Sequence record: NC_055780.1
Source: Escherichia phage MLF4
Strand: one strand, 5' to 3'
Length of the DNA stretch: 64,000 nucleotides
Positions 1,729-62,764 of the stretch are shown piece after piece. The position numbers and the translations under genes were made by a program. Every line of letters starts with the position of its first letter. The first letter of the stretch is position 1. Under the pieces are notes generated by a model. That model did no database searches, had not been told where the DNA came from, and worked only from the letters and a program-made list of their open reading frames with translations.

Positions 1729-3822
1729 ATGGAACTTATTACAGAATTATTTGACGAAGATACTACTCTTCCGATTACAAACTTAAATCCAAAGAAGAAA
1801 ATACCACAAATTTTTTCAGTTCATGTTGATGATGCAATTGAACAACCAGGCTTTCGTTTATGTACCTATACATCTGGAGGTGATACTAATCGCGATTTAA
1901 AGATGGGCGATAAAATGATGCATATTGTTCCTTTTACATTAACTGCTAAAGGCTCAATTGCTAAATTAAAAGGTCTTGGTCCAAGCCCAATTAATTATAT
2001 CAATTCAGTTTTTACTGTTGCAATGCAAACGATGCGTCAATATAAAATTGATGCCTGCATGCTTCGTATTCTTAAGTCTAAAACTGCTGGCCAAGCTCGA
2101 CAAATTCAAGTTATTGCTGATAGACTTATCCGTAGTCGTTCAGGTGGCAGATACGTCCTTCTTAAGGAACTCTGGGATTACGATAAAAAGTATGCATATA
2201 TTCTTATACATCGCAAAAATGTATCATTAGAAGACATTCCAGGAGTTCCAGAAATTAGCACTGAACTCTTTACTAAAGTTGAATCGAAGGTCGGTGATGT
2301 TTATATCAATAAAGATACTGGAGCTCAAGTAACTAAAAATGAGGCAATTGCAGCATCTATTGCGCAAGAAAATGATAAACGTTCTGACCAAGCTGTAATC
2401 GTTAAAGTTAAAATTTCCCGTAGAGCAATTGCGCAAAGTCAATCGTTAGAGTCTTCTAGATTTGAAAGTGAATTATTCCAGAAGTATGAATCTACTGCAG
2501 CTAATTTCAATAAACCTGCTACCGCTCCTTTAATTCCCGAAGCAGAAGAAATGAAGCTTGGAATTAATTCATTAGCTTCTAAAACAAAGGCAGCAAAAAT
2601 TATTGCCGAAGGAACGGCAGATGAACTTCACTATGATTATAAATTCTTTCCAATGAGTCAAGTCGGTGAAGTTTCAGAAAAAATTAAAGAAGTAATTTTT
2701 AATGCAATTAAAAATGAACCAACTACTTCAATAAAATGTTTAGAGAAATACGCAGCAGCTGTAAATCAATTCTTTGAAGATTATAAAGATAAATGGCTTG
2801 CTAATCATAATAAAAATCGTAAAGGACAATCAGATGAAGTCTGGGAAGAAATAACTAAAAATTCCTGGAACGCAACAAAAACTAAATTCCTCAAACGAAT
2901 GATTTACAGTTTTTCTGGAATTGGTGCTGGTCCAATGATTGATATTACTATTGCACGCGATGGTTCTAAATATACTCCATCACAAAAGCGTGGCATTAGA
3001 GAATATTGCGGTTCAGGATATACTGACATCAATAATCTTCTTTTAGGTCGTTACAATCCAGAACGATACGATGTAATGAGTGAAAAAGAAATTGAATCTG
3101 CTATAAATAACTTAGATTCAGCTTTTGAAAATGGTGACCGTATACCAGAAGGCATTACAGTTTATCGTGCTCAAAGTATGACTGCTCCTATATATGAAGC
3201 GTTAGTTAAAAATAAAGTGTTCTACTTCAGAAATTTTGTATCTACTTCTTTAACTCCTATCATTTTTGGACGTTTTGGAATCACACATGCTGGTATTGGT
3301 CTTTTAGAACCAGAAGCTCGTAATGAATTGACAGTTGATAAAAATGAAGAAGGAATAACTATTAATCCAAACGAAATAAGAGCGTATAAAGAAAATCCTG
3401 AATACGTTAAAGTTCAAATAGGATGGGCAATTGATGGAGCTCATAAAGTTAATGTTGTATATCCAGGAAGTCTCGGAATAGCAACAGAAGCTGAAGTTAT
3501 TCTACCGCGCGGATTGATGGTCAAAGTTAATAAAATAACTGATGCTTCTAATAATGACGGAACAACATCTAATAATACAAAACTCATTCAAGCTGAAGTT
3601 ATGACCACAGAAGAGCTCACCGAATCGGTAATCTATGACGGAGACCATTTAATGGAAACCGGTGAAGTAGTTGCAATGACAGGTGATATTGAAATAGAAG
3701 ACAGAGTTGACTTTGCATCATTTGTTTCATCAAATATTAAACAGAAAGTAGAATCATCTCTTGGAATTATTGCGTCTTGCATAGATATTACAAACATGCC
3801 TTACAAGTTCGTTCAAGGATAA
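1729..3822 (+). CDS. alt: Alt ADP-ribosyltransferase (virion-packaged)
   Basis: 697 aa; N-terminus MELITELFDEDTTLPITNL and C-terminus ...NMPYKFVQG match recalled T4 Alt; ART-like elements YRAQ, FVSTSL, EAEVILPRG; late promoter upstream. Confidence 0.9.
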   Translation: MELITELFDEDTTLPITNLNPKKKIPQIFSVHVDDAIEQPGFRLCTYTSGGDTNRDLKMGDKMMHIVPFTLTAKGSIAKLKGLGPSPINYINSVFTVAMQTMRQYKIDACMLRILKSKTAGQARQIQVIADRLIRSRSGGRYVLLKELWDYDKKYAYILIHRKNVSLEDIPGVPEISTELFTKVESKVGDVYINKDTGAQVTKNEAIAASIAQENDKRSDQAVIVKVKISRRAIAQSQSLESSRFESELFQKYESTAANFNKPATAPLIPEAEEMKLGINSLASKTKAAKIIAEGTADELHYDYKFFPMSQVGEVSEKIKEVIFNAIKNEPTTSIKCLEKYAAAVNQFFEDYKDKWLANHNKNRKGQSDEVWEEITKNSWNATKTKFLKRMIYSFSGIGAGPMIDITIARDGSKYTPSQKRGIREYCGSGYTDINNLLLGRYNPERYDVMSEKEIESAINNLDSAFENGDRIPEGITVYRAQSMTAPIYEALVKNKVFYFRNFVSTSLTPIIFGRFGITHAGIGLLEPEARNELTVDKNEEGITINPNEIRAYKENPEYVKVQIGWAIDGAHKVNVVYPGSLGIATEAEVILPRGLMVKVNKITDASNNDGTTSNNTKLIQAEVMTTEELTESVIYDGDHLMETGEVVAMTGDIEIEDRVDFASFVSSNIKQKVESSLGIIASCIDITNMPYKFVQG

Positions 3823-3825
3823 ATC

Positions 3826-5883
3826 ATGGAACTTATTACAGAATTATTTGACGGCGCTTCGGCGCCGGTTGTTAACTTAAATCCTAAGCATAAAATACCT
3901 CAAATTTTTGCTATTCAAGCAGGTGAAGAAAGCGTGCTTCCTGGATTTAGATTTTGTACATACACCTCTGGCGGTGATACGAATAAAAACGTTAAGCCAG
4001 GCGACAAAATGATGCATATCGTAATGATAGGTGTTAATGAGAAACTATCATTAGTTAAGCTTAAAAACTTGGGTGGAAATCCAATTGGCGTCATTAATGC
4101 TGTTTTTGATACTGCTCTTCAAACAATGAAGCAGTATAAAATTGATGCATGCCTATTCCGCGTACTAAAAAGTAAAACAAATGGCGCAGCTCGTCAAATG
4201 CAAGTTATTGCTGACCGTTTAGTACGTACTAAAGGAGCAGGTCGATATGTTCTTTTAAAGGAAATCTGGGATTATGATAAAAAGTACGCATATATTATGG
4301 TTTACCGTAAAAATGCCAATTTAGAAGACATTCCAGGTGTACCTCCTATTTCAACCGAGTTATTCACAAAAGTTGAATCAAAGGTTGGTGATGTTTATGT
4401 AGACGTTAAAACAGGTAATGCTGTTCCTAAAGCTGTTGCTGTTGCTGCTTCTATTGCTTTAGAAAATGATAAGCGCACGGATCAAGCTGTTATTCAGAAA
4501 ACTAAAATTAGTCGTCGATTAGCAGCACAAGCTCAATATTCTACTGTTGATGCTTCACTTCAGGGTGATAGCTTCGCTGCTAAGAAATATCAAGAGTTTG
4601 AATCTAAAGTTCCGGTATATAAAGCAGAAGGACCAATGAACTCTGGCGTTATTCAGATTGGTTCAAACTTTAGCAAAGGAGCTATCGGTGGTATGAGAAG
4701 TGCTTCTCGTTTTAAATCTAGTGATTATGAACTCGAAAGCTTCCGAAATCATATTGCATTGGCCCATGCACGTTTACGCGATCCATCTATCAAGCTGCAG
4801 AGCGATATAACATATCAAGGTTCTCAAGAATATTTAAAGAATAAAGAATTCTTTGATTATAAAACTGATAAAATTTTAAGCGATCTTGCTGACATTAATA
4901 TTTCTAATAGCTTTGATGTTATTAAGAAAATTGTCAATGATTTAGTTAAAGGTTCTAAAGCTACACCAGATGAAAAGACAGCTATTATTCAATTTGTCAT
5001 GAATGGAATTTATAAATTAATTGATGAATCTGCCGCTCAGGCATATGAATATGCAAGTACTGAAGTAACTCCAAAAGGATTAACTCAGGCTGAATCTGAT
5101 GTAATTGAAGATTATTGTGCAGATTCATATGTTGAAATGAACTCATTCCTTTTAGGTAAACCTGATTCTACCCGTGAAGAATATATGGAACGAGCTATTA
5201 AACATATTGAGACGCTGGATTCTGCATTTTCTAAAGGTTCAGTTCTTCCTCCAGGAACGACTCTTTATCGTGGGCAAGAAGTTACCTTTAAAACTTTGCG
5301 TCATAACATTGAAAATAAAATGTTCTATTTCAAGAACTTTGTATCTACTTCACTCAAGCCAAATATCTTCGGTGAATATGGTAAAAATTATATGGCCTTA
5401 GATGATTCCGGAGCAGTATTTTCTGGTGAAGGAGAAGGTTCAGTTGATGCTGAAGATTTAATGCATATGGGTAGTCATTCTACATATGCGAATGAAGACG
5501 CTGAAACTAGCGTGGGTATGGTAATTAAAGGAGCTGAACGAGTTAAAGTTATCGTTCCAGGTCATTTGTCAGGATTTCCATCAGAAGCTGAAGTTATTCT
5601 ACCACGTGGAATTTTACTGAAGATTAATAAAGTAAGTACTTACTTTATGAAAGAAACTGCTTATAACAAGTATCTAATCGAAGGTACAATCGTTCCTCCT
5701 TCTGAACAATTAGAAGAATCAGTATATGATGGCGACCATCTAATGGAAACTGGTGAAGTTCGTCCAATGGCTGGATTTAATCAATTCCTTGTAGAAGAAT
5801 CAAAAGAAGAGGAAAACGAAGTTTCTCAAATCTTAGCTTCTTTGGTTAACATTAACGGAATGTCTAAAAAGTTCAAAATGTAG
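3826..5883 (+). CDS. Alt-like ADP-ribosyltransferase paralog
   Basis: 685 aa; same N-terminal block (MELITELFD...CTYTSGGDTN...KQYKIDAC...WDYDKKYAYI) and catalytic-region motifs (YRGQ, FYFKNFVSTSL, EAEVILPRG, YDGDHLMETGEV) as the upstream alt but divergent central and C-terminal segments. Confidence 0.8.
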   Translation: MELITELFDGASAPVVNLNPKHKIPQIFAIQAGEESVLPGFRFCTYTSGGDTNKNVKPGDKMMHIVMIGVNEKLSLVKLKNLGGNPIGVINAVFDTALQTMKQYKIDACLFRVLKSKTNGAARQMQVIADRLVRTKGAGRYVLLKEIWDYDKKYAYIMVYRKNANLEDIPGVPPISTELFTKVESKVGDVYVDVKTGNAVPKAVAVAASIALENDKRTDQAVIQKTKISRRLAAQAQYSTVDASLQGDSFAAKKYQEFESKVPVYKAEGPMNSGVIQIGSNFSKGAIGGMRSASRFKSSDYELESFRNHIALAHARLRDPSIKLQSDITYQGSQEYLKNKEFFDYKTDKILSDLADINISNSFDVIKKIVNDLVKGSKATPDEKTAIIQFVMNGIYKLIDESAAQAYEYASTEVTPKGLTQAESDVIEDYCADSYVEMNSFLLGKPDSTREEYMERAIKHIETLDSAFSKGSVLPPGTTLYRGQEVTFKTLRHNIENKMFYFKNFVSTSLKPNIFGEYGKNYMALDDSGAVFSGEGEGSVDAEDLMHMGSHSTYANEDAETSVGMVIKGAERVKVIVPGHLSGFPSEAEVILPRGILLKINKVSTYFMKETAYNKYLIEGTIVPPSEQLEESVYDGDHLMETGEVRPMAGFNQFLVEESKEEENEVSQILASLVNINGMSKKFKM

Positions 5884-8330: not shown

Positions 8331-10103
8331 TTAATTAACTCCAGTCGCATCAAATACACCAGGAGCAGTCGTGCTCGTTACGGGTGTCATATTATGAACG
8401 ACAGTATTTTTCTTAATAACATTATTAGTATTATTGATCGAAGGAGATGCTTGTTGAACAGGAGCTTGCTGTGCTTTGTTCTTTTCTATTACCTGGACTT
8501 GTTTTGCTTCTGGCGATTTAGCAGAAGTTTCAGGTTTGGCATTAGGCTGATTTTTCTTGAGCTCTTGATAAGTAGCATCAATTTTAGAAAATCTAGCAGC
8601 AAGTTCTTTTTTAACTGCCGGTGAATTATTTAAATCTGGGTCATCCATCCGTTTTTTAAGGTCTTCATAGGCAGCTTCAACTGATTTAACCGTTGAGTCT
8701 TTACTCATATCAGCTGAATCAGCATATTTTTCAAAACGAATCATCGCGGCACGGGCTTCATTAGCCTTCATTAAAGCATTTTTTCTTTCTTCAGGTGAAA
8801 GTTGCTTTAATTTTTCTTCTTCTGCTGCGCGTTCTTCATCGGTTGTCAATGCTTCTTTATTATCAACGCCACGAATCCAGTTAGATGCACGAGTTTTCCA
8901 ATTAGCAATTTTATCTAATCCTTTTGCTATCGGACCAAGGTCTCCGTTCATTCGTTTATCTTGATAATTTGCAACTTTTTCCTGGTCTTCTTTATTGAGA
9001 GATGCTCCAGTAGAATTTTGGAAATTTTCTAGTGCTCTTCCTTCTACTTCATCAGCGGTATCCTTCATGCCAGGAATGACTCGAAGAATTGCAGCAGATA
9101 ATTTAGCCATTCCAAGCTGAATAAGTTCTCCTAAATTATAAAGAACCTTTCCAAGCCCTTCTACAATAGCTACCGTCAAACCGCCCCAATCTCCCTCTTC
9201 CCAGAATTTTTTAATTTCATCAATAGAACTAAAGATGCTCTGTAATAAAGGACCCCATGTTCCGGTTTCGCTAGAGAATTTAGTAAAGTCTGTACTAAAC
9301 AAATCCCAAGCCTGCGAAAATTTATCTGACCAATATTTGAAATGAACCATCAGCAGATCTATTCCAACAACAACAGCCAATATCATTGCAGTCATTTTAG
9401 CAGCTTCAATAGCAGCACTAACGGTATACTTAAATAGCATGCTTGATATTTTATCAGTAATTGAAATGGATTTCTTAAATCCAAAATCAACAGTCTTTGT
9501 TAATTTATCTAAAGCTTGAGATAATTTTAAGTTAAATGCGTCTTTTTTCTGTTTTTCTTCTGGCGATTCTTGTTTAGGTTCAACTGGCTGAGGGGTAGGG
9601 AAAAAATCAGCATCAGGATCATTATTAACTGCTTCAGGAGCCGGTAATAAAGGACCCACAGATTCAGCTGTATCGTCCTCAACAACTTTAACAGGAATAG
9701 CGCTTTCAACCGTAGCTAAACTAGTTCCTGTTTGTTGAATTCCGGCTGTCTGGATTTTTTGCTCGAGTAAACTCGTTAATTTATCTAATTTACTTCCGAG
9801 CGATTCACCGATTTCTTTATTAATATTATTGCCAATTTCGACAGTTTCAGCAATTAACTCAGAACCGGCAGTAGTATCACTTACTGCGCTTTCAACGTTA
9901 TCAATTGCTCCAACTATTTCATTTGATTTTTCTTCAACAGTCTGAGCTATTAATTCAGAAGCAGCTTGAGTATCATCCAATTTCGTAGATATATCATTAA
10001 GTCCAGATAAAGTGTTAGAAGCAGATTTAGCCGCTTCCTGTGTTGGTTTATTATCTGAAATAACTTTTCTACGCATCGTTTGCATTTCTTGTGGCTTTTT
10101 CAT
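8331..10103 (-). CDS. 29: baseplate hub / tail length determinator gp29
   Basis: 590 aa as in T4 gp29; extended predicted helical/coiled region; synteny. Confidence 0.85.
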   Translation of the reverse strand: MKKPQEMQTMRRKVISDNKPTQEAAKSASNTLSGLNDISTKLDDTQAASELIAQTVEEKSNEIVGAIDNVESAVSDTTAGSELIAETVEIGNNINKEIGESLGSKLDKLTSLLEQKIQTAGIQQTGTSLATVESAIPVKVVEDDTAESVGPLLPAPEAVNNDPDADFFPTPQPVEPKQESPEEKQKKDAFNLKLSQALDKLTKTVDFGFKKSISITDKISSMLFKYTVSAAIEAAKMTAMILAVVVGIDLLMVHFKYWSDKFSQAWDLFSTDFTKFSSETGTWGPLLQSIFSSIDEIKKFWEEGDWGGLTVAIVEGLGKVLYNLGELIQLGMAKLSAAILRVIPGMKDTADEVEGRALENFQNSTGASLNKEDQEKVANYQDKRMNGDLGPIAKGLDKIANWKTRASNWIRGVDNKEALTTDEERAAEEEKLKQLSPEERKNALMKANEARAAMIRFEKYADSADMSKDSTVKSVEAAYEDLKKRMDDPDLNNSPAVKKELAARFSKIDATYQELKKNQPNAKPETSAKSPEAKQVQVIEKNKAQQAPVQQASPSINNTNNVIKKNTVVHNMTPVTSTTAPGVFDATGVN

Positions 10104-10633
10104 TCAAATAATCCAATAATATTGCCAATTCCAGTTATTGGACCATTAGGGCCAGGAATTGCTAAAGTTGTAAAAATATCATTTGCCCATTTTAAAACGA
10201 ATGCTGGCATCTCAAGAAAATTAATTTCTTTAACTTCATCATTGACCTTAAGCAAGCATTTGGATAACATATCGCTCACCGTTAAAAATTGTTCAAATTT
10301 TCCAGGAGGTCTAAAATAAAATGTATTTCCTTGGTATTGAAATTCTAATCTTTGGCATACATAAACATCATTAATGTCATAAGTATAACCATCTATTTCT
10401 TTACGAGATTTAATCTTTCCATTAAATTCCAATAAATGAATGGAAACGAAATCAACTTCTGCTGGTGATAAATTCGGGCAAATAGAATCAATAAGAAGTT
10501 TTAAATTTTCATCAGGACCTTTAACATCTTTTAAAATGTTATAATGTTTAAGACCCATTTTAGGAATAGAAACTTCTTTATTGCTTATTGGAAGAACTAC
10601 TTTCTTCAGTGGTAGTATCAGATTTAAATTCAT
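10100..10633 (-). CDS. 28: baseplate hub distal subunit gp28
   Basis: 177 aa as in T4 gp28; ATG at 10633; overlaps 3' end of gene 27 by ~56 nt. Confidence 0.8.
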
Positions 10634-53823: not shown

Positions 53824-54054
53824 ATGAAAACTTATAAAGAGTTTGCTACAGAAACTATTATCACTGAATCTTCTCATGGTATGGAAGTAAAGCTTGGAAT
53901 GGCTTTAGCTGAAGCTGAGCGTCTTTTCTCTCGTATTAAAGAACTTGCTGCTGCAGTCGATCCTTCGTCTTTTAAAGGAGACCAAACTAAAGTTAAAGCA
54001 CTTTTAGCATTATGCTCTGACGCAGGAGAAATCGCTAAAATGGTTCTAAGATGA
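53824..54054 (+). CDS. internal protein (IPI-locus) with capsid targeting sequence
   Basis: 76 aa; N-terminus MKTYKEFATE fits the T4 internal-protein capsid-targeting consensus MK(T/S)YQEF(I/L)xE with an (L/I/A)-x-E gp21-type cleavage site at residue 10. Confidence 0.7.
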   Translation: MKTYKEFATETIITESSHGMEVKLGMALAEAERLFSRIKELAAAVDPSSFKGDQTKVKALLALCSDAGEIAKMVLR

Positions 54055-54068
54055 AGAAACGATTAGAA

Positions 54069-54100
54069 GATTTAAAATAATTTCACAAAGTTGTTTACAC
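54069..54100 (+). repeat. 32-bp direct repeat copy 2
   Basis: identical to 53739..53770. Confidence 0.85.
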
Positions 54101-54122
54101 GGGGTTTTAGTAGTGATACTAT
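54093..54122 (+). promoter_or_regulatory. early promoter (duplicate cassette)
   Basis: GTTTAC at 54093, 18-nt spacer, TACTAT at 54117. Confidence 0.6.
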
Positions 54123-54150
54123 TACCCTATCAACTACTGAGGAGAATAAA

Positions 54151-54336
54151 ATGAAACGTTGTGAATTAATTCGAAATGTTGCTATTGCAATTTCTGCTTC
54201 CGCTTTTAGTTTTTCAATGTTTGTTGGATTTATATGCGGATTATTAACTACAGCAGAAAATGTATTTTCACTTGTAGTAGCATTTTTAATTGGTTTAATT
54301 GCTATCGTTATGGATAAAATTTCTAAAGGTGAGTAA
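54151..54336 (+). CDS. small predicted membrane protein (61 aa)
   Basis: ATG at 54151 with GAGGAG SD; two hydrophobic helices (AIAISASAFSFSMFVGFICGLL, VFSLVVAFLIGLIAIV). Confidence 0.55.
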   Translation: MKRCELIRNVAIAISASAFSFSMFVGFICGLLTTAENVFSLVVAFLIGLIAIVMDKISKGE

Positions 54337-54337
54337 A

Positions 54338-54718
54338 ATGTATAAAGTATATGCAGATTATCAGGCTAATCCATCTGAAAAGCCAGATTGCCAAATTGGA
54401 TGGGCTCATGATACTTTGCTTGAAGCAGTAGATGCTGCTCAAAAATTAGGATATAAATATGTAGAGATTGTTCAACCGACAGGAAAAGTTATTACTCTTG
54501 AAGAGTTCAATAATATTAAACCGAACTTTTTACTTTTTGCAGGTGATAATTATTATCCTCGCGGTGGATATGCTGATTTAATCGCGAAAGCCGCTACCGA
54601 AGATGAACTTCGTGATATTATCAAAGAAAATGAAAACAAACCGATGTATGGTTCTAATCGCTTTGATTGGTGGCAAATTGTAAATGCCCACACTCATACT
54701 ATTGTTGATGAAGGGTAA
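54338..54718 (+). CDS. hypothetical protein (126 aa)
   Basis: ATG at 54338 with AAAGGTGAG SD directly after upstream stop; no recognisable domain. Confidence 0.55.
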   Translation: MYKVYADYQANPSEKPDCQIGWAHDTLLEAVDAAQKLGYKYVEIVQPTGKVITLEEFNNIKPNFLLFAGDNYYPRGGYADLIAKAATEDELRDIIKENENKPMYGSNRFDWWQIVNAHTHTIVDEG

Positions 54719-54720
54719 TA

Positions 54721-55011
54721 ATGATTCTTTATGCTAAAGTATCGTCCATTGAAAATGGATATAAATATGATCAAGAAGCAGCTAAAGCCTTGATTGATGA
54801 TTATGGCATTTTAACATGTTTTGAAGTTGAAAAGGTTTACATTGACCGTTCATCTTCTCAGGTTAAATTAGTGAAGGAAGACCGTAAATTTAATACAGTA
54901 AATTTTGATTTCTTTATTGAAACAGAAAAAGGTCCTCTTGAATATGATATTTTCAAGAATCCTTTAAGTCTTGAATGTATTAAATATACTTATATTAATG
55001 CAGCGTGGTGA
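54721..55011 (+). CDS. hypothetical protein (96 aa)
   Basis: ATG 3 nt after upstream stop; no recognisable domain. Confidence 0.5.
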   Translation: MILYAKVSSIENGYKYDQEAAKALIDDYGILTCFEVEKVYIDRSSSQVKLVKEDRKFNTVNFDFFIETEKGPLEYDIFKNPLSLECIKYTYINAAW

Positions 55012-55013
55012 AA

Positions 55014-55526
55014 ATGAATATTTGTTTAGGTACTACAATTCCGCAGGGTTACGTAATTGATGTCACTACCTGGGAAAATGATGGTGACAACTATAAAACT
55101 AAAACGCTGTTTGGCGTAGAAGAGCATGAAATCTTACAGTTCCAATATCTTTTAAAGAAGTTTAAAAGCAGACATTCTAGTACTAAAGCTGAACGTTATT
55201 GTGGTAATGGCTTGTTCAGCGAGCAATCGCTTTTTATTTATGAATACTTGGTTGAAGGACTGTTCTCAGAACAACTTTATCCAGAATTCATTAAAAAGGT
55301 CTTTGATATAGAAGTTGACCTTGGTAATAAATCCGAAGAAGATGAAGAACGTGTATTTGACTTATTCTTTGTGAATGGTAATAAGATATTTGAAGGCCTT
55401 ATTGATATTCTTGGTCATGCTTCTGAATATTATGACTATGATTTCTTGCGTGTAGTTGAGAGTGTTAAATACTCTTATATAGAAGAAATTGTTTTGCCGA
55501 CCGTTAAAATGTTTAATTTGCTTTAA
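55014..55526 (+). CDS. hypothetical acidic protein (170 aa)
   Basis: ATG at 55014 right after upstream TGA; track ORF begins at GTG 55005. Confidence 0.5.
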   Translation: MNICLGTTIPQGYVIDVTTWENDGDNYKTKTLFGVEEHEILQFQYLLKKFKSRHSSTKAERYCGNGLFSEQSLFIYEYLVEGLFSEQLYPEFIKKVFDIEVDLGNKSEEDEERVFDLFFVNGNKIFEGLIDILGHASEYYDYDFLRVVESVKYSYIEEIVLPTVKMFNLL

Positions 55527-55625
55527 GAATTATTTGTTATTATTAACTCATACCGCACTGATTAATACCCTCTATCATCAAGGGTTCTTGCTAAAGAGCC
55601 TTTGTTAATAATTGGGAATCATATT

Positions 55626-56234
55626 ATGGATACTAAATTAGCTGAAATTTTTGAAGGAAAACATCCAAATTTTAGTACAGGAAAGCTGAAAGACAAAATA
55701 ATAAAAGAAAATATTTTTCCATATGAGTGTGCAATTTGTAAAATTTCAAAATGGCAAAATAAGCATATTGTTCTGCAATTAGACCATATTGATGGAAATA
55801 ACAAAAATCATCTTAAATCAAATTTAAGATTATTATGTCCAAACTGCCATTCGCAAACTGATACTTTTGCTGGTAAAAATATTAAAAATAATAAAAAGCG
55901 TTATAATGTTAGTGATGAAGAAATTTTAAACGCACTATTAAATTCGGCTACTATATCATCTGCAATTACTTCATTAGGTTTAAGTAAAGGCGGAAACTAT
56001 AAAAGATTCATTAAAATTGCTAATGATAATAAATTATATCATTTACTGGTAAATATTAATGAAAAGATTTTAACTGATGAAATTTACGAAGAATTAGTTA
56101 AAATCGATTATTCTAAATTTGGATGGGTTAGTAAAGCTGCTAAAATAATAGGTATAAGCCCACAAAAAGCTAGAAAATGGATAGAACGAAAGTGTCCAGA
56201 ATTGATAGAACAGTCTTTTTCACGTAATAAATAA
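55626..56234 (+). CDS. freestanding HNH homing endonuclease
   Basis: canonical HNH core IVLQLDHIDGNNKNHLKSNLRLLCPNCHSQTD with CAIC/CPNC zinc ligands; ATG at 55626 (track ORF starts at TTG 55602); immediately upstream of the tRNA cluster. Confidence 0.85.
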   Translation: MDTKLAEIFEGKHPNFSTGKLKDKIIKENIFPYECAICKISKWQNKHIVLQLDHIDGNNKNHLKSNLRLLCPNCHSQTDTFAGKNIKNNKKRYNVSDEEILNALLNSATISSAITSLGLSKGGNYKRFIKIANDNKLYHLLVNINEKILTDEIYEELVKIDYSKFGWVSKAAKIIGISPQKARKWIERKCPELIEQSFSRNK

Positions 56235-56240
56235 TATAGC

Positions 56241-56327
56241 GCGAGAATGGTCAAATTGGTAAAGGCACAGCACTTAAAATGCTGCGGAATTATTTCCTTG
56301 TGGGTTCGAGTCCCACTTCTCGCACCA
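56241..56327 (+). tRNA. tRNA-Leu (anticodon UAA)
   Basis: cloverleaf folded by eye: acceptor GCGAGAA/TTCTCGC, anticodon stem CAGCA/TGCTG with loop CTTAAAA, long variable arm, T-loop GGTTCGAGTCC, CCA encoded. Confidence 0.85.
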
Positions 56328-56332
56328 AATTT

Positions 56333-56406
<74 letters not shown>

Positions 56407-56416
56407 ATTTAATTTA

Positions 56417-56490
56417 CTCCGTGTAGCTCAGTTTGGTAGAGCGCCTGATTTGGGATCAGGAGGTCCAAGGTTCAAATCCTTGTATGGAGA
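56417..56490 (+). tRNA. tRNA-Pro (anticodon UGG)
   Basis: acceptor CTCCGTG/TATGGAG (two G-U), anticodon stem CCTGA/TCAGG loop TTTGGGA, T-loop GGTTCAAATCC; CCA not encoded. Confidence 0.85.
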
Positions 56491-56492
56491 CT

Positions 56493-56582
56493 GGAGGCGT
56501 GGCAGAGTGGTTGAATGCACCGGTCTTGAAAACCGGCAGTCGCTCCGGCGACTCATAGGTTCGAATCCTATCGCCTCCGCCA
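56493..56582 (+). tRNA. tRNA-Ser (anticodon UGA)
   Basis: acceptor GGAGGCG/CGCCTCC, anticodon stem CCGGT/ACCGG loop CTTGAAA, long variable arm, CCA encoded. Confidence 0.85.
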
Positions 56583-56587
56583 GTTTT

Positions 56588-56663
56588 GCTGATTTAGCTC
56601 AGTAGGTAGAGCACCTCACTTGTAATGAGGATGTCGGCGGTTCGATTCCGTCAATCAGCACCA
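56588..56663 (+). tRNA. tRNA-Thr (anticodon UGU)
   Basis: acceptor GCTGATT/AATCAGC, anticodon stem CCTCA/TGAGG loop CTTGTAA, T-loop GGTTCGATTCC, CCA encoded. Confidence 0.85.
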
Positions 56664-56664
56664 A

Positions 56665-56739
56665 GGCCCTGTAGCTGGAAGGTTCAAGCAAGCGACTCAT
56701 AATCGCCAGATGGTGGTTCAATTCCACCCAGGGCCACCA
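56665..56739 (+). tRNA. tRNA-Ile/Met type (anticodon CAU; T4 equivalent reads AUA as Ile)
   Basis: acceptor GGCCCTG/CAGGGCC, anticodon loop CTCATAA, T-loop GGTTCAATTCC, CCA encoded. Confidence 0.8.
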
Positions 56740-56745
56740 AATTAA

Positions 56746-56832
56746 GGGGAGTTATCCCGTAGAGGTAGCGGTGTGGACTGTAAATTCATTGTCATTGCGA
56801 CTCGGGTGGTTCGACTCCATCACTCCCCACCA
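56746..56832 (+). tRNA. tRNA-Tyr (anticodon GUA), class II
   Basis: acceptor GGGGAGT/ACTCCCC, anticodon loop CTGTAAA, variable arm GTCATTGCGAC and 3' end closely parallel bacterial tRNA-Tyr; anticodon stem has two G-U pairs. Confidence 0.75.
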
Positions 56833-56836
56833 ATTT

Positions 56837-56911
56837 GGATGTGTAGCTCAATGGCAGAGCGATCGCCTGTTAAGCGATTGGTTATAGGTTCGAATCCTAT
56901 CACGTCCGCCA
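56837..56911 (+). tRNA. tRNA-Asn (anticodon GUU)
   Basis: acceptor GGATGTG/CACGTCC, anticodon stem ATCGC/GCGAT loop CTGTTAA, T-loop GGTTCGAATCC, CCA encoded. Confidence 0.85.
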
Positions 56912-57025
56912 AATTTGTGACAACTGTCACATTAATATCTACTTGACGCGATTATAGGGGTTGAACTGATCACTCTTCTCTTAATTTCGTGTGAAGACAT
57001 CATGATTGTTGGAGTAGGTATTAAT

Positions 57026-57101
57026 GTGGCCGTAGTTCAGTTGGTAGAACTCGAGATTGTGATTCTCGTAGTCATGGGTTCGACTCCCATCGGTCACCCC
57101 A
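57026..57101 (+). tRNA. tRNA-His (anticodon GUG)
   Basis: acceptor GTGGCCG/CGGTCAC, D-stem GTTC/GAAC, anticodon stem CGAGA/TCTCG loop TTGTGAT, discriminator C, CCA encoded. Confidence 0.85.
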
Positions 57102-57105
57102 ATTA

Positions 57106-57181
57106 CGGGGCATAGCTCAGAAGGAAGAGCAAGGACCTTCTAAGTCCTGGGTCGTAGGTTCGATCCCTACTGCCTCGACCA
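57106..57181 (+). tRNA. tRNA-Arg (anticodon UCU)
   Basis: acceptor CGGGGCA/TGCCTCG, anticodon stem AGGAC/GTCCT loop CTTCTAA, T-loop GGTTCGATCCC, CCA encoded. Confidence 0.85.
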
Positions 57182-57199
57182 ATTATAAGTGAGGAAAAT

Positions 57200-57550
57200 A
57201 TGAAAGGTAATGTTTATTTAGTAGTTCATGATTTAACATTCTATTTTAATCATAATGATACTGTTATTTCTGAACGTGTAATTAATTTGCTTTATCAGCA
57301 TGCAGATTATGTTTATGTCGAAAACGAATATGGTCATTGGCAATTTCTCAAAAATCGTTCATTTGGTTTAGATGGTTACGAATATTTTGAACGTAAAGAC
57401 CTTTTAGATAAAATTCCGTTATCTACACAATATCAAAATCATAAGTCTTTACATAAATGTCGACTAATTCGAAATGCTGAATCTGCTTATGAAGCAATTG
57501 ATTTATGGCGTTTACGCCGTGAACAGATTGATGCTTTAAAAGAATATTAA
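57200..57550 (+). CDS. hypothetical protein (116 aa)
   Basis: ATG at 57200 with GAGGAA SD directly after tRNA-Arg; no recognisable domain. Confidence 0.55.
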   Translation: MKGNVYLVVHDLTFYFNHNDTVISERVINLLYQHADYVYVENEYGHWQFLKNRSFGLDGYEYFERKDLLDKIPLSTQYQNHKSLHKCRLIRNAESAYEAIDLWRLRREQIDALKEY

Positions 57551-57890
57551 GAAGCCGGGTCGCTACCGGTAAGTCGTCGGACTGATGTTCCCTGAGTAAG
57601 GACTAGCCTTAATAAATCTTTATGTTTTGTTAATGCTCCCTTACATCACAGCAGAAACGGCGCACCGAATTATCGATTCGAGGAAATATCTTTGCCGTAA
57701 GCCGAGTAGCGTTTTTGACGGAACGTTCGGATATGGTCGAGATATGGCCTTTTAAAAATATTGAGTAGCGTCAACTGCTTGATAACCGGGTTCGAATCCC
57801 GGCGTTTCGTACAAACACTTGCCTTAGCAGGTGGAACCCCGACAAGGTTGCCGCAAGGCTTAGCCCCAGCCGAAAGGTTGGGGCTTTTTA
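57551..57890 (+). ncRNA. candidate small stable RNA(s) with tRNA-like T-arm, ending in strong terminator
   Basis: no long ORF in about 340 nt; contains CCGGGTTCGAATCCCGG (T-arm-like) and local hairpins; terminator AGCCCCAGCC-GAAA-GGTTGGGGCT+T5 at 57862..57889; may correspond to the T4 species 1/2 stable RNAs (from memory, unverified). Confidence 0.4.
57862..57889 (+). terminator. intrinsic terminator (10-bp stem, GAAA tetraloop, T-run)
   Basis: AGCCCCAGCC GAAA GGTTGGGGCT TTTT; near-identical module recurs at 58417..58444. Confidence 0.8.
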
Positions 57891-57891
57891 G

Positions 57892-57899
57892 TATAAATA
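57892..57899 (+). promoter_or_regulatory. late promoter TATAAATA (internal protein gene at 57936)
   Basis: TATAAATA 37 nt upstream of ATG, directly after the terminator. Confidence 0.6.
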
Positions 57900-57935
57900 A
57901 GTATATTAAATCTACAAATTAAAACAGGAAATAAG

Positions 57936-58409
57936 ATGAAATCATATACTCAATTTTTAAATGAAGCGGTGTTAAATGAAGCGTCTAGCACCGAAATTCA
58001 AGCTGTCGCAAAAGCAGCCATTGCAGCGGGTAAATATTCCTATAAAGATGCTTCTGATGAATCACGATTCCAATTTGCTCGCGACATGAAAGCAGAAGGA
58101 TTTACGGGGAATGCTGTTAGTATGGCCTGGAAAAGTTTAGTTGCTACTGGCGCTGCTTTTGCAAAGGCTTCGGGTAAACCTGCTCCTAAAGCAGATCCTA
58201 AAGTCACACAAGAGAAAAATATCGTTAAAGGAATTATCTCTAGGTATGAAGCAATTCTTAAAGAGCTTTTAGTAATCAAAACTGAAGGCCAAAAACTAGC
58301 TCGTGCTTATAGTTTCAAAGATAACCCACATGCTCACTCTCTTGAGTATGTTGAAGACATTCAAAAAATTATTAAAGACCGCATTTGGTCTGCTAAACAA
58401 ATCAAATAA
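57936..58409 (+). CDS. internal protein-like (capsid targeting sequence), 157 aa
   Basis: N-terminus MKSYTQFLNEA fits the CTS consensus with L-N-E cleavage motif; Ala/Lys-rich; own late promoter and terminator. Confidence 0.65.
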   Translation: MKSYTQFLNEAVLNEASSTEIQAVAKAAIAAGKYSYKDASDESRFQFARDMKAEGFTGNAVSMAWKSLVATGAAFAKASGKPAPKADPKVTQEKNIVKGIISRYEAILKELLVIKTEGQKLARAYSFKDNPHAHSLEYVEDIQKIIKDRIWSAKQIK

Positions 58410-58416
58410 CATTCTT

Positions 58417-58444
58417 AGCCCTAGCCGAAAGGTTGGGGCTTTTT
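58417..58444 (+). terminator. intrinsic terminator (repeat of the 57862 module)
   Basis: AGCCCTAGCC GAAA GGTTGGGGCT TTTT 8 nt after stop. Confidence 0.8.
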
Positions 58445-58579
58445 GGTATCTAGGCCTTTCCAGGCCTCTCTAGGCATCATTTAGTTTCTACCCTTTATAA
58501 TATATTATCCTATCTTTTAATTGCCCCTCCCTGCCCTAGAATTCCCTAAAACTTTTTAAAAAAATTTTTTCACAAAACG

Positions 58580-58609
58580 GTTTACATCCTTGTCCTTCCA
58601 TGGTACTAT
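58580..58609 (+). promoter_or_regulatory. early promoter (GTTTAC-N18-TACTAT)
   Basis: precedes ATG at 58653; lies inside the 5' extension of track ORF 58590..58916, arguing that ORF really starts at 58653. Confidence 0.55.
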
Positions 58610-58652
58610 ACAACTATCAACTACTGATACAGAAAACAACTTGGAGAATGAA

Positions 58653-58916
58653 ATGGATAATTACGGCGAACTGTTCAACTTCTTTATGAAATGTGTTTCA
58701 GAAGATTTCGGTCGTACAGTGAATGATATTAAAGTTATCGGTCCTGATCATCCGATGTTTGAAACTTACGCAGTAATGGGTAATGAAGACGGTCAGTGGT
58801 ATACTGTAAAGGTTGTGATTAACATGTTCACAGCAGAAGGTTATGTTAAACTGTCTTCTAAAGTTTACCATGATAACGACGAAATCGCAGAAGAATATTT
58901 CAATAATATGAAATAA
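58653..58916 (+). CDS. hypothetical protein (87 aa)
   Basis: ATG at 58653 with GGAG SD 6 nt upstream; track ORF start at 58590 is TTG and overlaps the promoter. Confidence 0.5.
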   Translation: MDNYGELFNFFMKCVSEDFGRTVNDIKVIGPDHPMFETYAVMGNEDGQWYTVKVVINMFTAEGYVKLSSKVYHDNDEIAEEYFNNMK

Positions 58917-58946
58917 GTTTACACAGGCTCATGATTGAGATATTAT
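58917..58946 (+). promoter_or_regulatory. early promoter with stem-loop (GTTTAC-N18-TATTAT; hairpin 58926..58951)
   Basis: GTTTAC abuts the TAA stop; inverted repeat GGCTCAT...ATGAGCC spans the -10. Confidence 0.55.
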
Positions 58947-58972
58947 GAGCCTATACAAATGAGGAAAACATT

Positions 58973-59308
58973 ATGAAACGTAACTTTAGTAAAGCTTTTT
59001 GTAATAGAAATAATTATCCTGAAGAGCTTTTTGAATCTAAGGACTTTGAAGAGTTTAATGAACGCTCTCAAAACATGCCTGTACAATGGGTGTTAGATTA
59101 TGCCAAACGTATCTTTGAAGGCGTGCGGGATATTTGTCCTGATGATGAAGCTCCTTATTTTAAAAAGGCTTGGGAACTCGCCAACCAAGCATATATCAAT
59201 GCTTTAGAATCTTCTAAAGGTACTGACGATGATTTTATTTTATTAGCTATCAATGATGCCGTTATCGAGGCCATCAACGTCTTTATCGACGAGCTAGACG
59301 AAGAATAA
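58973..59308 (+). CDS. hypothetical acidic protein (111 aa)
   Basis: ATG with GAGGA SD; no recognisable domain. Confidence 0.5.
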   Translation: MKRNFSKAFCNRNNYPEELFESKDFEEFNERSQNMPVQWVLDYAKRIFEGVRDICPDDEAPYFKKAWELANQAYINALESSKGTDDDFILLAINDAVIEAINVFIDELDEE

Positions 59309-59337
59309 GTTTACAATCTATTAAAACGTGATATTAT
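59309..59337 (+). promoter_or_regulatory. early promoter (GTTTAC-N17-TATTAT)
   Basis: GTTTAC abuts the TAA stop of the upstream ORF; precedes ATG at 59365. Confidence 0.55.
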
Positions 59338-59364
59338 CTAATTATACCAACCTAAGGAAATACT

Positions 59365-59958
59365 ATGAACACACTGAAGAAAATTGTTGAGTTTATTCGC
59401 ACTAAACTTGGTTCTGCTATGGCTAAAAATCTATCTGTTGAAGAACAGTATACTGCTGCGGCAGCAAAACTACTCGATAAGATTAAAGATCTAAAAACTG
59501 CTTCTGTTAAATCTATTAATGAAGAAAAGCGTATTCGTGAACTTATTGTCGAAAAGAATAAGCAGGCCGAATCAAAAGAGCGTGAAATTCGCAAGCTTCT
59601 TTCGGAAGGTCAAGATGTAACAATGCATGCTAAACTTGGTTTACTATATCGTCGAACAGCTGAGCAGTTGACTACTAAAGCTGATGGTTATGCTGAAATG
59701 CGAATTGAAATCGCCAAGAAAGTAGTTGAGTTAGATGATGCTCGCCAAGAACTTGCAGTTAAATTGGAATATATCCGTGAAACTCGCGCCGCGAATGCCC
59801 TCGGAATTAGTACTGCTGATGATGTAGTTGAAATTGCAGCACTGACTAAGGTTGATATTGAAGATACTCTTGCTCGAGTTGAAACCTTTAATGGCAATAT
59901 TTCTGGGGTTGAAACTACCTCTGCCGATGTTCAGGAATACATTAATTCTCTGAAATAA
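59365..59958 (+). CDS. hypothetical coiled-coil protein (197 aa)
   Basis: heptad-like charged helical sequence throughout; AAGGAA SD; followed by GGGGC-TTCG-GCCCC hairpin. Confidence 0.55.
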
Positions 59959-59999
59959 TGATAAGGGGCTTCGGCCCCTATTACTTGGAGTAAGTAGGA

Positions 60000-60605
60000 A
60001 TGAAAATGCAAAGTGATTTCAATTCAATGTTTGAAGAGTTCCAAAGACAGGTTGATGTTCCAGACCAATTATTAAATGCTCTTAAACGTATGGCAGAAGG
60101 ACGTAATTATTATTGGGGTTCTTCATATGAAACTGATGAAAGTCTTTCTGGATTTTATAAAGGTAAAAAGTCTTTAATACGTCCTGGAATACTTATTAAC
60201 AGTATTGAATCAATTCATTCATTAACATGTGATTTTGATGTTGAATTTACTGATTTCATTTCTCCTGAATGGACAGTATGTTATTTAAACGACGATTATG
60301 ATTATCTTGGCGTTTATAGTTTAAGTGATGCATGGTTTAAACGTAATTTACAAAAGTCAAATTTATTCTATATTGATACTACTGTAAAATTTCAGGGCAA
60401 GAAATATTTCTTTACTCTTATAGTTGATTCTGAAACGAAGCATGAAAATAAACGTATTCTTAGTAAAAAGAATATCTTAACTATTGTTGATGATCTTTTT
60501 GATAAATTTGTGGAAAATCCCAATTTTGAAAGCGATTTATTACTAGAAAAATTTGTTAAGGAATGTAGAGAATATGTCAAAGCCATCACTATACCTTCCA
60601 AGTAA
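60000..60605 (+). CDS. hypothetical protein (201 aa) with C-terminal FVKECR motif
   Basis: ATG with GTAGGA SD; C-terminus ...EKFVKECREYVKAITIPSK shares a motif with the next three ORFs. Confidence 0.5.
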   Translation: MKMQSDFNSMFEEFQRQVDVPDQLLNALKRMAEGRNYYWGSSYETDESLSGFYKGKKSLIRPGILINSIESIHSLTCDFDVEFTDFISPEWTVCYLNDDYDYLGVYSLSDAWFKRNLQKSNLFYIDTTVKFQGKKYFFTLIVDSETKHENKRILSKKNILTIVDDLFDKFVENPNFESDLLLEKFVKECREYVKAITIPSK

Positions 60606-60966
60606 ACCGTTGAAGTATGAATTAAAGCGTCAGATAATTTCTACTGATGTGTTAATAGGTCCTGTGGTAGCCGTATCATTTGTGATTCTGCTGATTGCTG
60701 GAATAGTTATAGACGTTATGACTGATATTGAATCTGGTGCAATATTTGGAGCAACACTAATTCTTCCATTGGTAGTTCCGCTTTTATTAGTACCTATAAA
60801 TTGGATAGGATATTGGTATCAAGGAAGACACTATCGTAAACGTGTACGTGATTGGAAAGCTCAGTGTAAAAAGATTAAAAAGGAACATCAGCTTAAACTT
60901 GCTGCGCATGAATTTGATGAAATTATGAAATTTGTTAAGGAATCACGATGCAAAAGCCAAAACTAA
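60574..60966 (+). CDS. small membrane protein paralog 1
   Basis: start at MSKPSL (overlaps upstream ORF end); two hydrophobic helices then basic region; C-terminal ...FVKESRCK. Confidence 0.5.
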   Translation: MSKPSLYLPSKPLKYELKRQIISTDVLIGPVVAVSFVILLIAGIVIDVMTDIESGAIFGATLILPLVVPLLLVPINWIGYWYQGRHYRKRVRDWKAQCKKIKKEHQLKLAAHEFDEIMKFVKESRCKSQN

Positions 60967-61310
60967 ATAAAGTCAAATATTCTCTTCCTGAGTCATTTTT
61001 AATTTTTGCTGTAGCGTTGGCTGCAGCTCTTGCGGGTAGTCTTTTTGGATTGTTAATTGACTGTCTTATTTTAAACATTGACGGCACAGTAAATATAATA
61101 GAAGTTTGGAGTGAACTTCACTATACTAAAATTATTTCATTATTTTCATTCTTTGGTACAATGTTATATTTTCATTATGATAATTTTAAAATAAATTGGC
61201 AAAGAAAAAAGGATTACAAAATACAATTAAAGGAATATAATAGCTACATGTCTTATATTGAAAAAGAATCAATGGAAGAGTTTGTGAGTGATTGTAGGAA
61301 AATTAAATGA
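60948..61310 (+). CDS. small membrane protein paralog 2
   Basis: 120 aa; hydrophobic helices; C-terminal ...FVSDCRKIK; overlaps neighbours. Confidence 0.5.
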   Translation: MQKPKLNKVKYSLPESFLIFAVALAAALAGSLFGLLIDCLILNIDGTVNIIEVWSELHYTKIISLFSFFGTMLYFHYDNFKINWQRKKDYKIQLKEYNSYMSYIEKESMEEFVSDCRKIK

Positions 61311-61791
61311 TTTTAAAAACTCGCTGGTATGATTTAGATGATGGGGATGATGGCATTTCAGTTGATAGAGTTGACTGGAATGGTTGTTCCGAAGATATGA
61401 AAAATTTGTTGATTAGGGAGTTTAGAATGGGATATCAAGCAGCTAAGCCATCTATTATAACAGATGATAAATTCGTGTGTATTCATAATGGTCGTGCTAA
61501 GTTAACGAACGCTGATTGGTTCACAGATAAAATTATGATTCTGTGGTATATTATTAGTCTTCCTGTGACATCATTCGTATTTTACTTTTTTATAAAAAAT
61601 CCAATGGACAGAATAGGAGATTGGATTCTTTTAACCATACTTGTTAATATTTTTACAGCAGCAATATTATCTGGGATATGGTGCGTGTTCATTGAAATGC
61701 CATGGCGGCTACGCAGACAGCAAAAGATTTTTGATGAAAAGAAATACATTCAAAATTTAAATAACTTTATCACTGAATGCAGGAAATTAAA

Positions 61792-61795
<4 letters not shown>
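61307..61795 (+). CDS. small membrane protein paralog 3
   Basis: 162 aa; hydrophobic helices; C-terminal ...FITECRKLK; stop overlaps nudE start (ATGA). Confidence 0.5.

Positions 61796-62764
<969 letters not shown>

Follow-up and report, generated by a model that had tools for sequence, protein, structure and literature searches.

Four short, consecutive genes in the genome of Escherichia phage MLF4 (sequence record NC_055780.1) encode proteins of different build that end in a common peptide. The analysed stretch, referred to as the window, comprises 64,000 nucleotides (nt) of this genome. It belongs to a Tequatrovirus (T4-like) genome, and its region 59300-62300 shows 98% DNA identity to the Tequatrovirus phages slur04 and teqhal; 641 phage records match this region. 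According to the T4 annotation and the PHROGs database, the four open reading frames (ORFs) are the T4 genes e.5, e.4, e.3 and e.2. The comparison with the small T4 genes e.2 to e.8 that had been recommended in an earlier reading of the bare sequence (the original prediction) was therefore apt. The shared C-terminal peptide, hereafter the tail, is a discrete protein module that on balance appears to be functionally tied to the product of the preceding gene e.6, a divergent member of the PspA/IM30 family. The tail-bearing proteins, hereafter carriers, are encoded as follows:

60000..60605, plus strand: e.5 (T4 e.5/msp4; phrog_2607), 201 amino acids (aa), soluble; behind the tail, 11 further residues whose codons overlap the start of e.4
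60574..60966, plus strand: e.4 (phrog_2604), 130 aa, ATG start; basic N-terminus, very basic C-terminal segment, tail
60948..61310, plus strand: e.3 (phrog_2330), 120 aa; basic segment, then tail
61307..61795, plus strand: e.2 (phrog_2203), 162 aa; acidic N-terminal domain (residues 1-75), basic segment, tail

All four ORFs are genuine early genes of a T4-type phage. Their products match PHROGs families over the full length (2e-108 for e.5, 1e-69 for e.4, 2e-60 for e.3 and 2e-78 for e.2) and share 94%, 86%, 88% and 75% identity, respectively, with the T4 proteins. The genes follow each other with overlaps of 32 nt (e.5/e.4), 19 nt (e.4/e.3) and 4 nt (e.3/e.2, ATGA), as had been described from the sequence, and e.2 overlaps nudE by another 4 nt (ATGA). 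Order and overlaps of e.5 to e.2 are the same in T4. The wider synteny is likewise conserved, running from the tRNA cluster through e.8, e.7, e.6, e.5, e.4, e.3, e.2 and nudE to e and denV, so that e.6 lies upstream of the four genes and nudE, e (lysozyme) and denV lie downstream. In the older T4 GenBank record L13089, the same gene string is named msp3-msp8, with msp3 corresponding to e.6 and msp4-msp7 to e.5-e.2.

The C-termini read FVKECREYVKAITIPSK in e.5, FVKESRCKSQN in e.4, FVSDCRKIK in e.3 and FITECRKLK in e.2. In all four ORFs the motif is located 3-11 residues ahead of the stop codon:

60552..60569, plus strand: e.5 tail motif F-V-K-E-C-R
60931..60948, plus strand: e.4 tail motif F-V-K-E-S-R, with a Cys two residues later
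61281..61298, plus strand: e.3 tail motif F-V-S-D-C-R
61766..61783, plus strand: e.2 tail motif F-I-T-E-C-R

A six-frame scan of the window for F-[IV]-x-[ED]-[CS]-R-[KCE] returned four matches, all of them in e.5-e.2, against 0.04 expected from 200 codon shuffles; the strict motif was found three times against 0.005 expected. Moreover, when ORFs of 50 codons or more were scanned in the window and in the T4 segments L020, L022, L001 and L021, which jointly make up the whole genome, F-[IV]-x-x-C-R was absent outside the tail genes, and the T4 scan identified only e.5, e.3 and e.2. These statistics rule out that the motif originated by chance or composition. For the comparisons described below, a carrier was defined as a protein with F-[IV]-x-x-C-R, or with S, V, I or M in place of C as in e.4-type proteins, no more than 18 residues from the C-terminus and preceded by hydrophobic-[ED]-x. 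All four ORFs of the window fall under this definition, e.4 by the variant with Ser at the Cys position and a Cys two residues on. Thus, the common C-terminus noticed in the original prediction is confirmed, confined to the four ORFs and much stronger than could be seen at that time, and the similarity exceeds that expected from composition (four matches against 0.04, and cross-family hhalign P values of 4e-6 to 2e-4). The accompanying interpretation is partly supported, and the functions that it names are conjectural.

The tails align to the consensus hydrophobic(-3)-[ED](-2)-x-F-[IV]-x-[E/x]-C-R-[KR], followed by 0 to 15 residues, and the hydrophobic positions -3, +1, +2 and +5 fall on one face of a helix. 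The replacement of Cys by S, V, I or M in e.4-type proteins suggests a packing role of this position rather than a chemical one. A resemblance between F-I-x-E and the T4 prohead-protease site (L/I-x-E) was also considered and dropped because the E is not conserved beyond three genera.

The tail could in principle be a nucleic-acid signal, that is, a Shine-Dalgarno or coupling element or a recombination linker at gene junctions, which is translated by happenstance. This RNA-level explanation needed to be tested for two reasons. Within the motif codons of the window there is AAGGAA or AGGAAA 5-10 nt ahead of the next ATG, so that these codons overlap its Shine-Dalgarno sequence. In addition, an exact 16-nt direct repeat, AAATTTGTTAAGGAAT, is present in the e.5 tail at 60549-60564 and in the e.4 tail at 60928-60943 and encodes K-F-V-K-E in both. 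The repeat and the common M-x-K-P start of e.4 and e.3 may also be traces of a junction duplication or of gene conversion. Codon usage and spacing were compared for 35 motif instances from nine genera. All six Arg codons are used (AGA 12, AGG 6, CGT 6, CGA 5, CGG 2 and CGC 1), as are both codons for Cys (TGT 16, TGC 11) and both for Phe (TTT 21, TTC 12). Where a start codon follows nearby, it lies between -7 and +77 nt from the motif, and in other instances no start is adjacent. Furthermore, e.3 and e.2 of Dhakavirus retain the tail despite different downstream genes. The codon diversity, the variable spacing and the persistence of the tail next to a different gene reveal a constraint on the amino acids. 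A nucleic-acid signal is therefore very improbable, and the motif is almost certainly a functional module at the protein level. Among the alternatives considered here, only the RNA-signal and the chance explanations are effectively excluded.

The topology of the four proteins was assessed from Kyte-Doolittle (KD) hydropathy and, using K+R counts, from the positive-inside rule. The predicted transmembrane (TM) segments are:

60643..60711, plus strand: e.4 TM1 (residues 24-46), mean KD 2.53
60739..60810, plus strand: e.4 TM2 (residues 56-79), mean KD 2.05
60996..61073, plus strand: e.3 TM1 (residues 17-42), mean KD 2.49
61128..61178, plus strand: e.3 TM2 (residues 61-77), weak, mean KD 1.02
61532..61594, plus strand: e.2 TM1 (residues 76-96), mean KD 2.10
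61619..61696, plus strand: e.2 TM2 (residues 105-130), mean KD 1.82

Two hydrophobic segments followed by a basic segment, as had been claimed for three of the proteins, are clear in e.4 and e.2. The second helix of e.3 is weaker in the window, yet it passes the threshold in the orthologues from T4 and Dhakavirus. Since the termini of e.4, e.3 and e.2 are rich in K and R and the connecting loops are poor in these residues (for instance, five at the N-terminus, none in the loop and 15 at the C-terminus of e.4), the three proteins are predicted to adopt an N-in/C-in topology, which would place the tail in the cytoplasm, in agreement with the original prediction. Besides its helices, e.2 possesses an acidic N-terminal soluble domain of about 75 aa. 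The e.5 protein lacks a hydrophobic segment (maximum KD19 of 0.87) and had no match in a phmmer search against the PDB. Its AlphaFold2 (AF2) model, which was built from an eight-sequence alignment, predicts a C-terminal helix across the tail (residues 179-195); the model is poor and was left out of the fold search because its predicted local distance difference test score (pLDDT) is 52. Homologues of e.5 carry the precomputed Pfam accession PF26876.

Pairwise BLASTP comparison of the four proteins of the window yielded weak similarity, and all-against-all BLASTP gave some colinear cross-family matches with E values of about 1e-3. Alignments of the families were compared with hhalign, which returned P values of 4e-6 to 2e-4 for 11-52 columns that were always co-terminal at the tail. 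When the tail was trimmed, every family pair fell to P >= 0.006. Because significance is lost on trimming, the demonstrable shared element is the tail, at most together with part of the preceding basic helix. The tail is thus a discrete C-terminal module, defined by sequence comparison, on bodies that cannot be aligned with each other: a soluble one in e.5 and two-helix membrane proteins in e.4, e.3 and e.2. Full-length paralogy of the latter three is neither shown nor excluded and is most plausible for e.4 and e.3, which have in common their length, an M-x-[KR]-P start, their architecture and a 43-column hhalign match with P = 2e-5. The tandem array of diverged membrane proteins that had been proposed is thus weakly supported: the genes do stand in tandem, but the trimmed families show no significant similarity and e.5 is not a membrane protein.

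The same results bear on the function suggested in the original prediction, a module for superinfection exclusion, lysis timing or interference with membrane-based defence, in which the tail would be the signature of diverged tandem paralogues. Such proteins would have the envelope as their site of action, as Imm, Sp, rI and rIII do, or they would block abortive-infection effectors that target the membrane. The likeness of e.4 and e.3 fits this idea, as does the nature of the products, small early inner-membrane proteins from a part of the genome that is hyperplastic and accessory. T4 likewise has small early or delayed-early accessory proteins of the inner membrane or envelope in Imm, Sp, rI, rIII and holin T. 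However, the tail proteins do not match any of these families or any other known exclusion, holin, antiholin or defence-related family, and Imm, Sp, rI, rIII and holin T lack the tail, as the T4 scan finds it only in e.5, e.3 and e.2. A Pfam search of the four ORFs gave no match at E <= 0.1; there was no informative match in Pfam, NCBIfam or PADLOC, and PHROGs returned only unnamed families. Moreover, the cross-family similarity disappears without the tail, and the existence of soluble carriers (e.5 and, in other genera, several proteins of 80-135 aa) does not suit an array of membrane paralogues. We regard this explanation as improbable as it stands, but it is compatible with a PspA-related role, since protection of the membrane can itself be an anti-defence function.

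The tail is widespread among relatives of the Tequatroviruses. Overall identity drops to 23-52% in the orthologues from Mosigvirus and Dhakavirus, yet these keep F-I/V-x-E-C-R. Across these two genera and Kanagawavirus, Jiaodavirus, Karamvirus, Moonvirus, Biquartavirus and Ishigurovirus, the motif survives in proteins whose remainder shows 25-50% identity. The phages of the last six genera contain one to six carriers each with the core F-[IV]-x-x-C-R, and several of these carriers are soluble proteins of 80-263 aa. Within 39 members of the e.3 family, F and C of the tail are invariant. The Mosigvirus JN02 possesses a fifth carrier, a two-TM protein of 101 aa with the C-terminus NLENFIKECRGK.

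Two further families were observed in this region. One is a second tandem family of small acidic proteins that end in G-x-W-[VI]-S-S-S-x-x-C. It is encoded between e.3 and e.2 in Mosigvirus, Dhakavirus, Kanagawavirus and Moonvirus phages (segments L013 of JN02, 9727-10521, minus strand; L005 of dhaeg, 3349-3930; L015, 7716-8790; L026, 5578-6346) and is absent from the window. The other is a highly conserved protein of 228 aa (MNSxKxFNSQARAVGG...EFPMEGW) that is encoded directly 5' of e.2 in Dhakavirus, Mosigvirus and Kanagawavirus (L005, 7219-7905; L013, 7109-7795; L015, 11251-11937) and is missing in Tequatrovirus, including the window.

In the original prediction, nudE and e served as the reference points of the module. 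The neighbour that proves informative lies on the other side: e.6 co-occurs with the tail genes across the Straboviridae, and in the window all four tail genes are located downstream of e.6 and in the same direction:

59365..59958, plus strand: e.6, 197 aa, no Cys, acidic C-terminal third; PspA/IM30 (ESCRT-III superfamily) homologue

The e.6 protein of the window alone has no sequence match in Pfam or the PDB. In its AF2 model, for which 30 homologues were used (pLDDT 74), a helix at the N-terminus is combined with a long helical hairpin. In a Foldseek search of the PDB with this model, the top eight matches were all Vipp1 or PspA, followed by the archaeal ESCRT-III protein CdvB2. The model and the search thus agree with an ESCRT-III-like fold comprising an N-terminal amphipathic helix and a long alpha1-alpha2/3 hairpin. 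A family profile that includes divergent members matches eight Vipp1/PspA chains with E values of 1e-4 to 3e-3, colinearly from residue 1 to about residue 146, and five of the 34 family members singly match the Pfam family PF04012 (PspA_IM30; best E = 8.9e-10). The hhalign comparison with E. coli PspA gave P = 3e-4, covering only the N-terminal 58 columns. An exhaustive hidden Markov model search of 1.84 billion representatives showed that the e.6 family is compact: at 50% identity it comprises 45 clusters, which with few exceptions are either about 200 aa long or shorter fragments. The link of this family to bacterial PspA was obtained only via the widened profile. Taken together, profile comparisons and the structural model identify e.6 as a divergent member of the PspA/IM30 family. 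The kinship has been noted in passing in a genome announcement, in which the e.6 homologue of phage Metamorpho matched E. coli PspA (4WHE) in HHpred (PMC7862958). This announcement was the only result of our literature searches for phage PspA, and no study of e.6 was found. One GenBank record of an e.6 homologue notes 'shock protein A'.

The linkage between the tail and e.6 was examined in 39 IMG/VR loci around e.6 homologues, with 6 kb on each side. A strict tail, defined as F[IV]..CR no more than 18 residues from the stop in an ORF of at least 45 aa, is present in 95 of the 648 downstream ORFs on the same strand, compared with one of 585 upstream ORFs and none of 595 ORFs on the opposite strand. 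The 95 carrier ORFs specify 92 distinct proteins; 51 of the ORFs lack a TM segment and 44 have one or two. Moreover, 36 of the 39 loci have a tail gene immediately behind e.6. The two negative loci, which derive from 230-kb Aeromonas phages, have F-[IV]-x-Y-C-I in both genes that follow e.6. The loci span at least ten genera and two subfamilies. On balance, we favour the view that the tail is functionally tied to e.6. What is new is that a conserved C-terminal peptide can be linked to a PspA homologue encoded by the phage; limited literature searches retrieved no record of a common tail in e.2-e.5 or of a link to e.6.

We propose that the tail would act as a cytoplasmic amphipathic helix that docks onto e.6 or its polymer. 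At the cytoplasmic face of the inner membrane, e.6 would be anchored or nucleated by the two-TM carriers; the product of e.5, the gene that always comes first behind e.6, would be a soluble adaptor or regulator. Such an arrangement could preserve a tight and energised membrane in the infected cell, whose psp genes can no longer be induced. The conserved C-terminal third of e.6 is acidic (10 D+E against 3 K+R) and the tails and juxtamembrane segments are basic, and this charge complementarity is consistent with docking. The tolerance of V, I, M and S at the Cys position is as expected for a packing residue on the face of a docking helix. That the tail docks the carriers to e.6 and thereby recruits it to the membrane is a possibility to be taken seriously, although the binding, the recruitment and the physiological role together fall somewhat short of being probable.

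The tails might instead bind each other and form a hetero-oligomeric helical bundle, in which the Cys residues possibly share a metal. The resulting stoichiometric membrane complex would be independent of e.6 and would serve, for example, as a channel, an exclusion device or a lysis-timing device. The overlapping starts and stops favour coupled and roughly equimolar synthesis, the motif has an amphipathic, heptad-like pattern, and Cys is, together with F, the best conserved residue, even in the distant Aeromonas phages. In several phages there are three to six carriers per genome, as a multi-subunit complex would need. However, the number and type of carriers vary freely by genus, which is unusual for a fixed complex, and phages with a single carrier, such as Biquartavirus with an e.5-like protein only, allow homo-oligomers only. 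An obligatory metal site is hard to reconcile with S, V, I and M in place of Cys in the e.4 lineage. Binding among the tails would also leave the invariant place directly behind e.6 unexplained. This explanation is unlikely, but it deserves to be kept in view.

Still less likely is an address that is read by the host. According to this idea, the tail would be a degron or tag for FtsH, ClpXP, Lon or a chaperone, or a mimic that captures the host proteins PspA or PspF, and it would serve to co-regulate several phage proteins or to target them jointly to one host machine. A short, cytoplasmic, linear motif at the C-terminus of unrelated bodies is indeed the typical format of degrons and docking tags, and it is conserved in phages of various enterobacterial and Aeromonas hosts. 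However, the motif is followed by 0 to 15 residues, unlike classical C-terminal degrons, and an address for the host does not explain the linkage to e.6.

Several observations weigh against a role of the tail in docking to e.6. The Pseudotevenviruses RB43 and Dev_CS701 and the Pectobacterium phage POP12 contain a very divergent e.6 gene (only about 32% identity) and no tail gene in the examined flanks, so that e.6 can evidently function without nearby carriers. The 39 loci are phylogenetically related and the counts therefore overstate their independence; co-location with e.6 may reflect common ancestry of one hyperplastic region rather than function. Moreover, e.2 does not adjoin the e.6-e.3 group in Dhakavirus, where about 14 unrelated genes intervene, or in Mosigvirus, where several do. 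The tail proteins have no significant similarity to PspB, PspC, PspD or PspE of E. coli and no match to the Pfam families of PspB and PspC; when 32 of them were compared with E. coli PspA-E by BLASTP, the best E value was 0.002 (one Mosigvirus e.3 against PspC) and nothing was consistent. The low pLDDT of the e.5 model means that the structure of this carrier is effectively unmodelled. Finally, e.2 appears to be dispensable in the laboratory because the gene is disrupted in the T4 reference.

The reading frame of T4 e.2 was inspected separately. In the reference genome (NC_000866; segment L001, 5480-5745, minus strand), e.2 is annotated with 102 aa owing to two compensating 1-nt indels relative to the window and to teqhal, a -1 in an A-run and a +1 about 77 nt later (window approximately 61590-61680), so that the end encoding the tail is in the original frame. 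The indels are either old sequencing errors or a lesion of the laboratory strain.

The closest functional analogy to e.6-e.2 would be provided by the Psp and Lia systems, which consist of a PspA-type effector and small membrane partners. In bacteria, the typical partners of PspA homologues are small proteins integral to the membrane; several, such as PspC, PspM and LiaI, have two TM segments, and the partners tether or regulate PspA at the membrane (PMC11237479). The phage locus is similar in that a PspA/IM30 protein, here e.6, is encoded beside small inner-membrane proteins, several of them with two TM segments and cytoplasmic termini. The order with the effector first and the membrane partners after it also resembles pspA-pspB-pspC. 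For LiaI and PspM, a small two-TM protein beside a PspA homologue is indeed found here, and the functional analogy is one of architecture and adjacency only. The locus differs from the bacterial systems in that it lacks a transcription regulator of the PspF, LiaRS or ClgR type and in that the e.6 module is phage-encoded and expressed early. Moreover, it comprises multiple interchangeable soluble and membrane carriers with one C-terminal peptide, for which no description was found in the literature searched.

In replication and late transcription of T4 itself, the unrelated proteins gp43, gp33 and gp55 bind a single partner, the gp45 clamp, through one short C-terminal peptide. This parallel is an analogy only, as motif, partner and cellular compartment all differ.

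Extending the proposal, T4-type phages might encode a minimal, self-contained Psp-like system for membrane maintenance, made up of e.6 and of an evolving set of adaptors that plug in via F-I-x-x-C-R. The two-TM, the soluble and the N-terminally extended adaptors would direct a phage ESCRT-III polymer to different lesions or sites, and the system would guard the proton-motive force against leakage by holins, superinfection and abortive-infection effectors that attack the membrane. We put this broader picture forward as a speculation that is rather unlikely to hold in full.

Further features flank the tail genes:

61792..62232, plus strand: nudE (Nudix hydrolase; Pfam NUDIX E = 1e-13 and T4 annotation), likely start 61792 in the e.2 stop (ATGA)
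59310..59337, plus strand: candidate sigma-70-like early promoter 5' of e.6, TTTACA-16-TATTAT with TG, by consensus match only
59964..59979, plus strand: GGGGC-UUCG-GCCCC hairpin between e.6 and e.5 without a T-run on the plus strand; putative stem_loop in L13089

The candidate promoter corresponds to the -35 and -10 elements annotated 5' of msp3 (= e.6) in L13089. The UUCG hairpin may stabilise the mRNA or act as an attenuator, and it could thereby set the ratio of e.6 to the carriers. From e.5 through nudE, a scan inside the gene string found promoter- and terminator-like sites not above shuffle expectation. This pattern would fit a single early transcript with translational coupling. Upstream of the string, a cluster of ten tRNA genes was found at 56241-57181 (Leu, Gly, Pro, Ser, Thr, Met(CAT), Tyr, Asn, His and Arg). 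The T4 reference has eight annotated tRNAs including Gln, which was not found in a scan of 54000-59000 of the window.

Public records describe e.5-e.2 only as hypothetical or membrane proteins or by spurious names such as 'sulfurtransferase'. Several product names resemble propagated errors, namely 'sulfurtransferase' for e.3 and for the lysozyme gene of JN02, 'host specificity protein' for e.6 and 'DNA primase' for e.3 of phage ZCEC14. The name 'sulfurtransferase' on e.3 was rejected as annotation noise, as NCBIfam does not support it and the lysozyme gene of JN02 bears the same label. That the product of E. coli pspE is a sulfurtransferase is regarded as a coincidence, because the tail proteins have no similarity to PspE.

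The recruitment of PspA, IM30 and Vipp1 to damaged membranes is a standing problem, and the partners of these proteins differ between lineages. If the broader picture of a Psp-like phage system is correct, the tail would be the first defined peptide code for recruiting an ESCRT-III protein of the bacterial type, comparable to the MIM-MIT or late-domain motifs in eukaryotes. A short, portable and strongly conserved peptide that co-occurs with a phage PspA also offers an easily mutated handle in the best-studied pair of phage and host. Even if the link to e.6 fails, the tail is a new C-terminal module in at least five protein families of the Straboviridae. For the five T4 genes e.6, e.5, e.4, e.3 and e.2, which have been 'hypothetical' since the 1990s, a testable role can now be put forward. 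More generally, the proposal suggests that large lytic phages replace the envelope-stress response of the host that they shut off.

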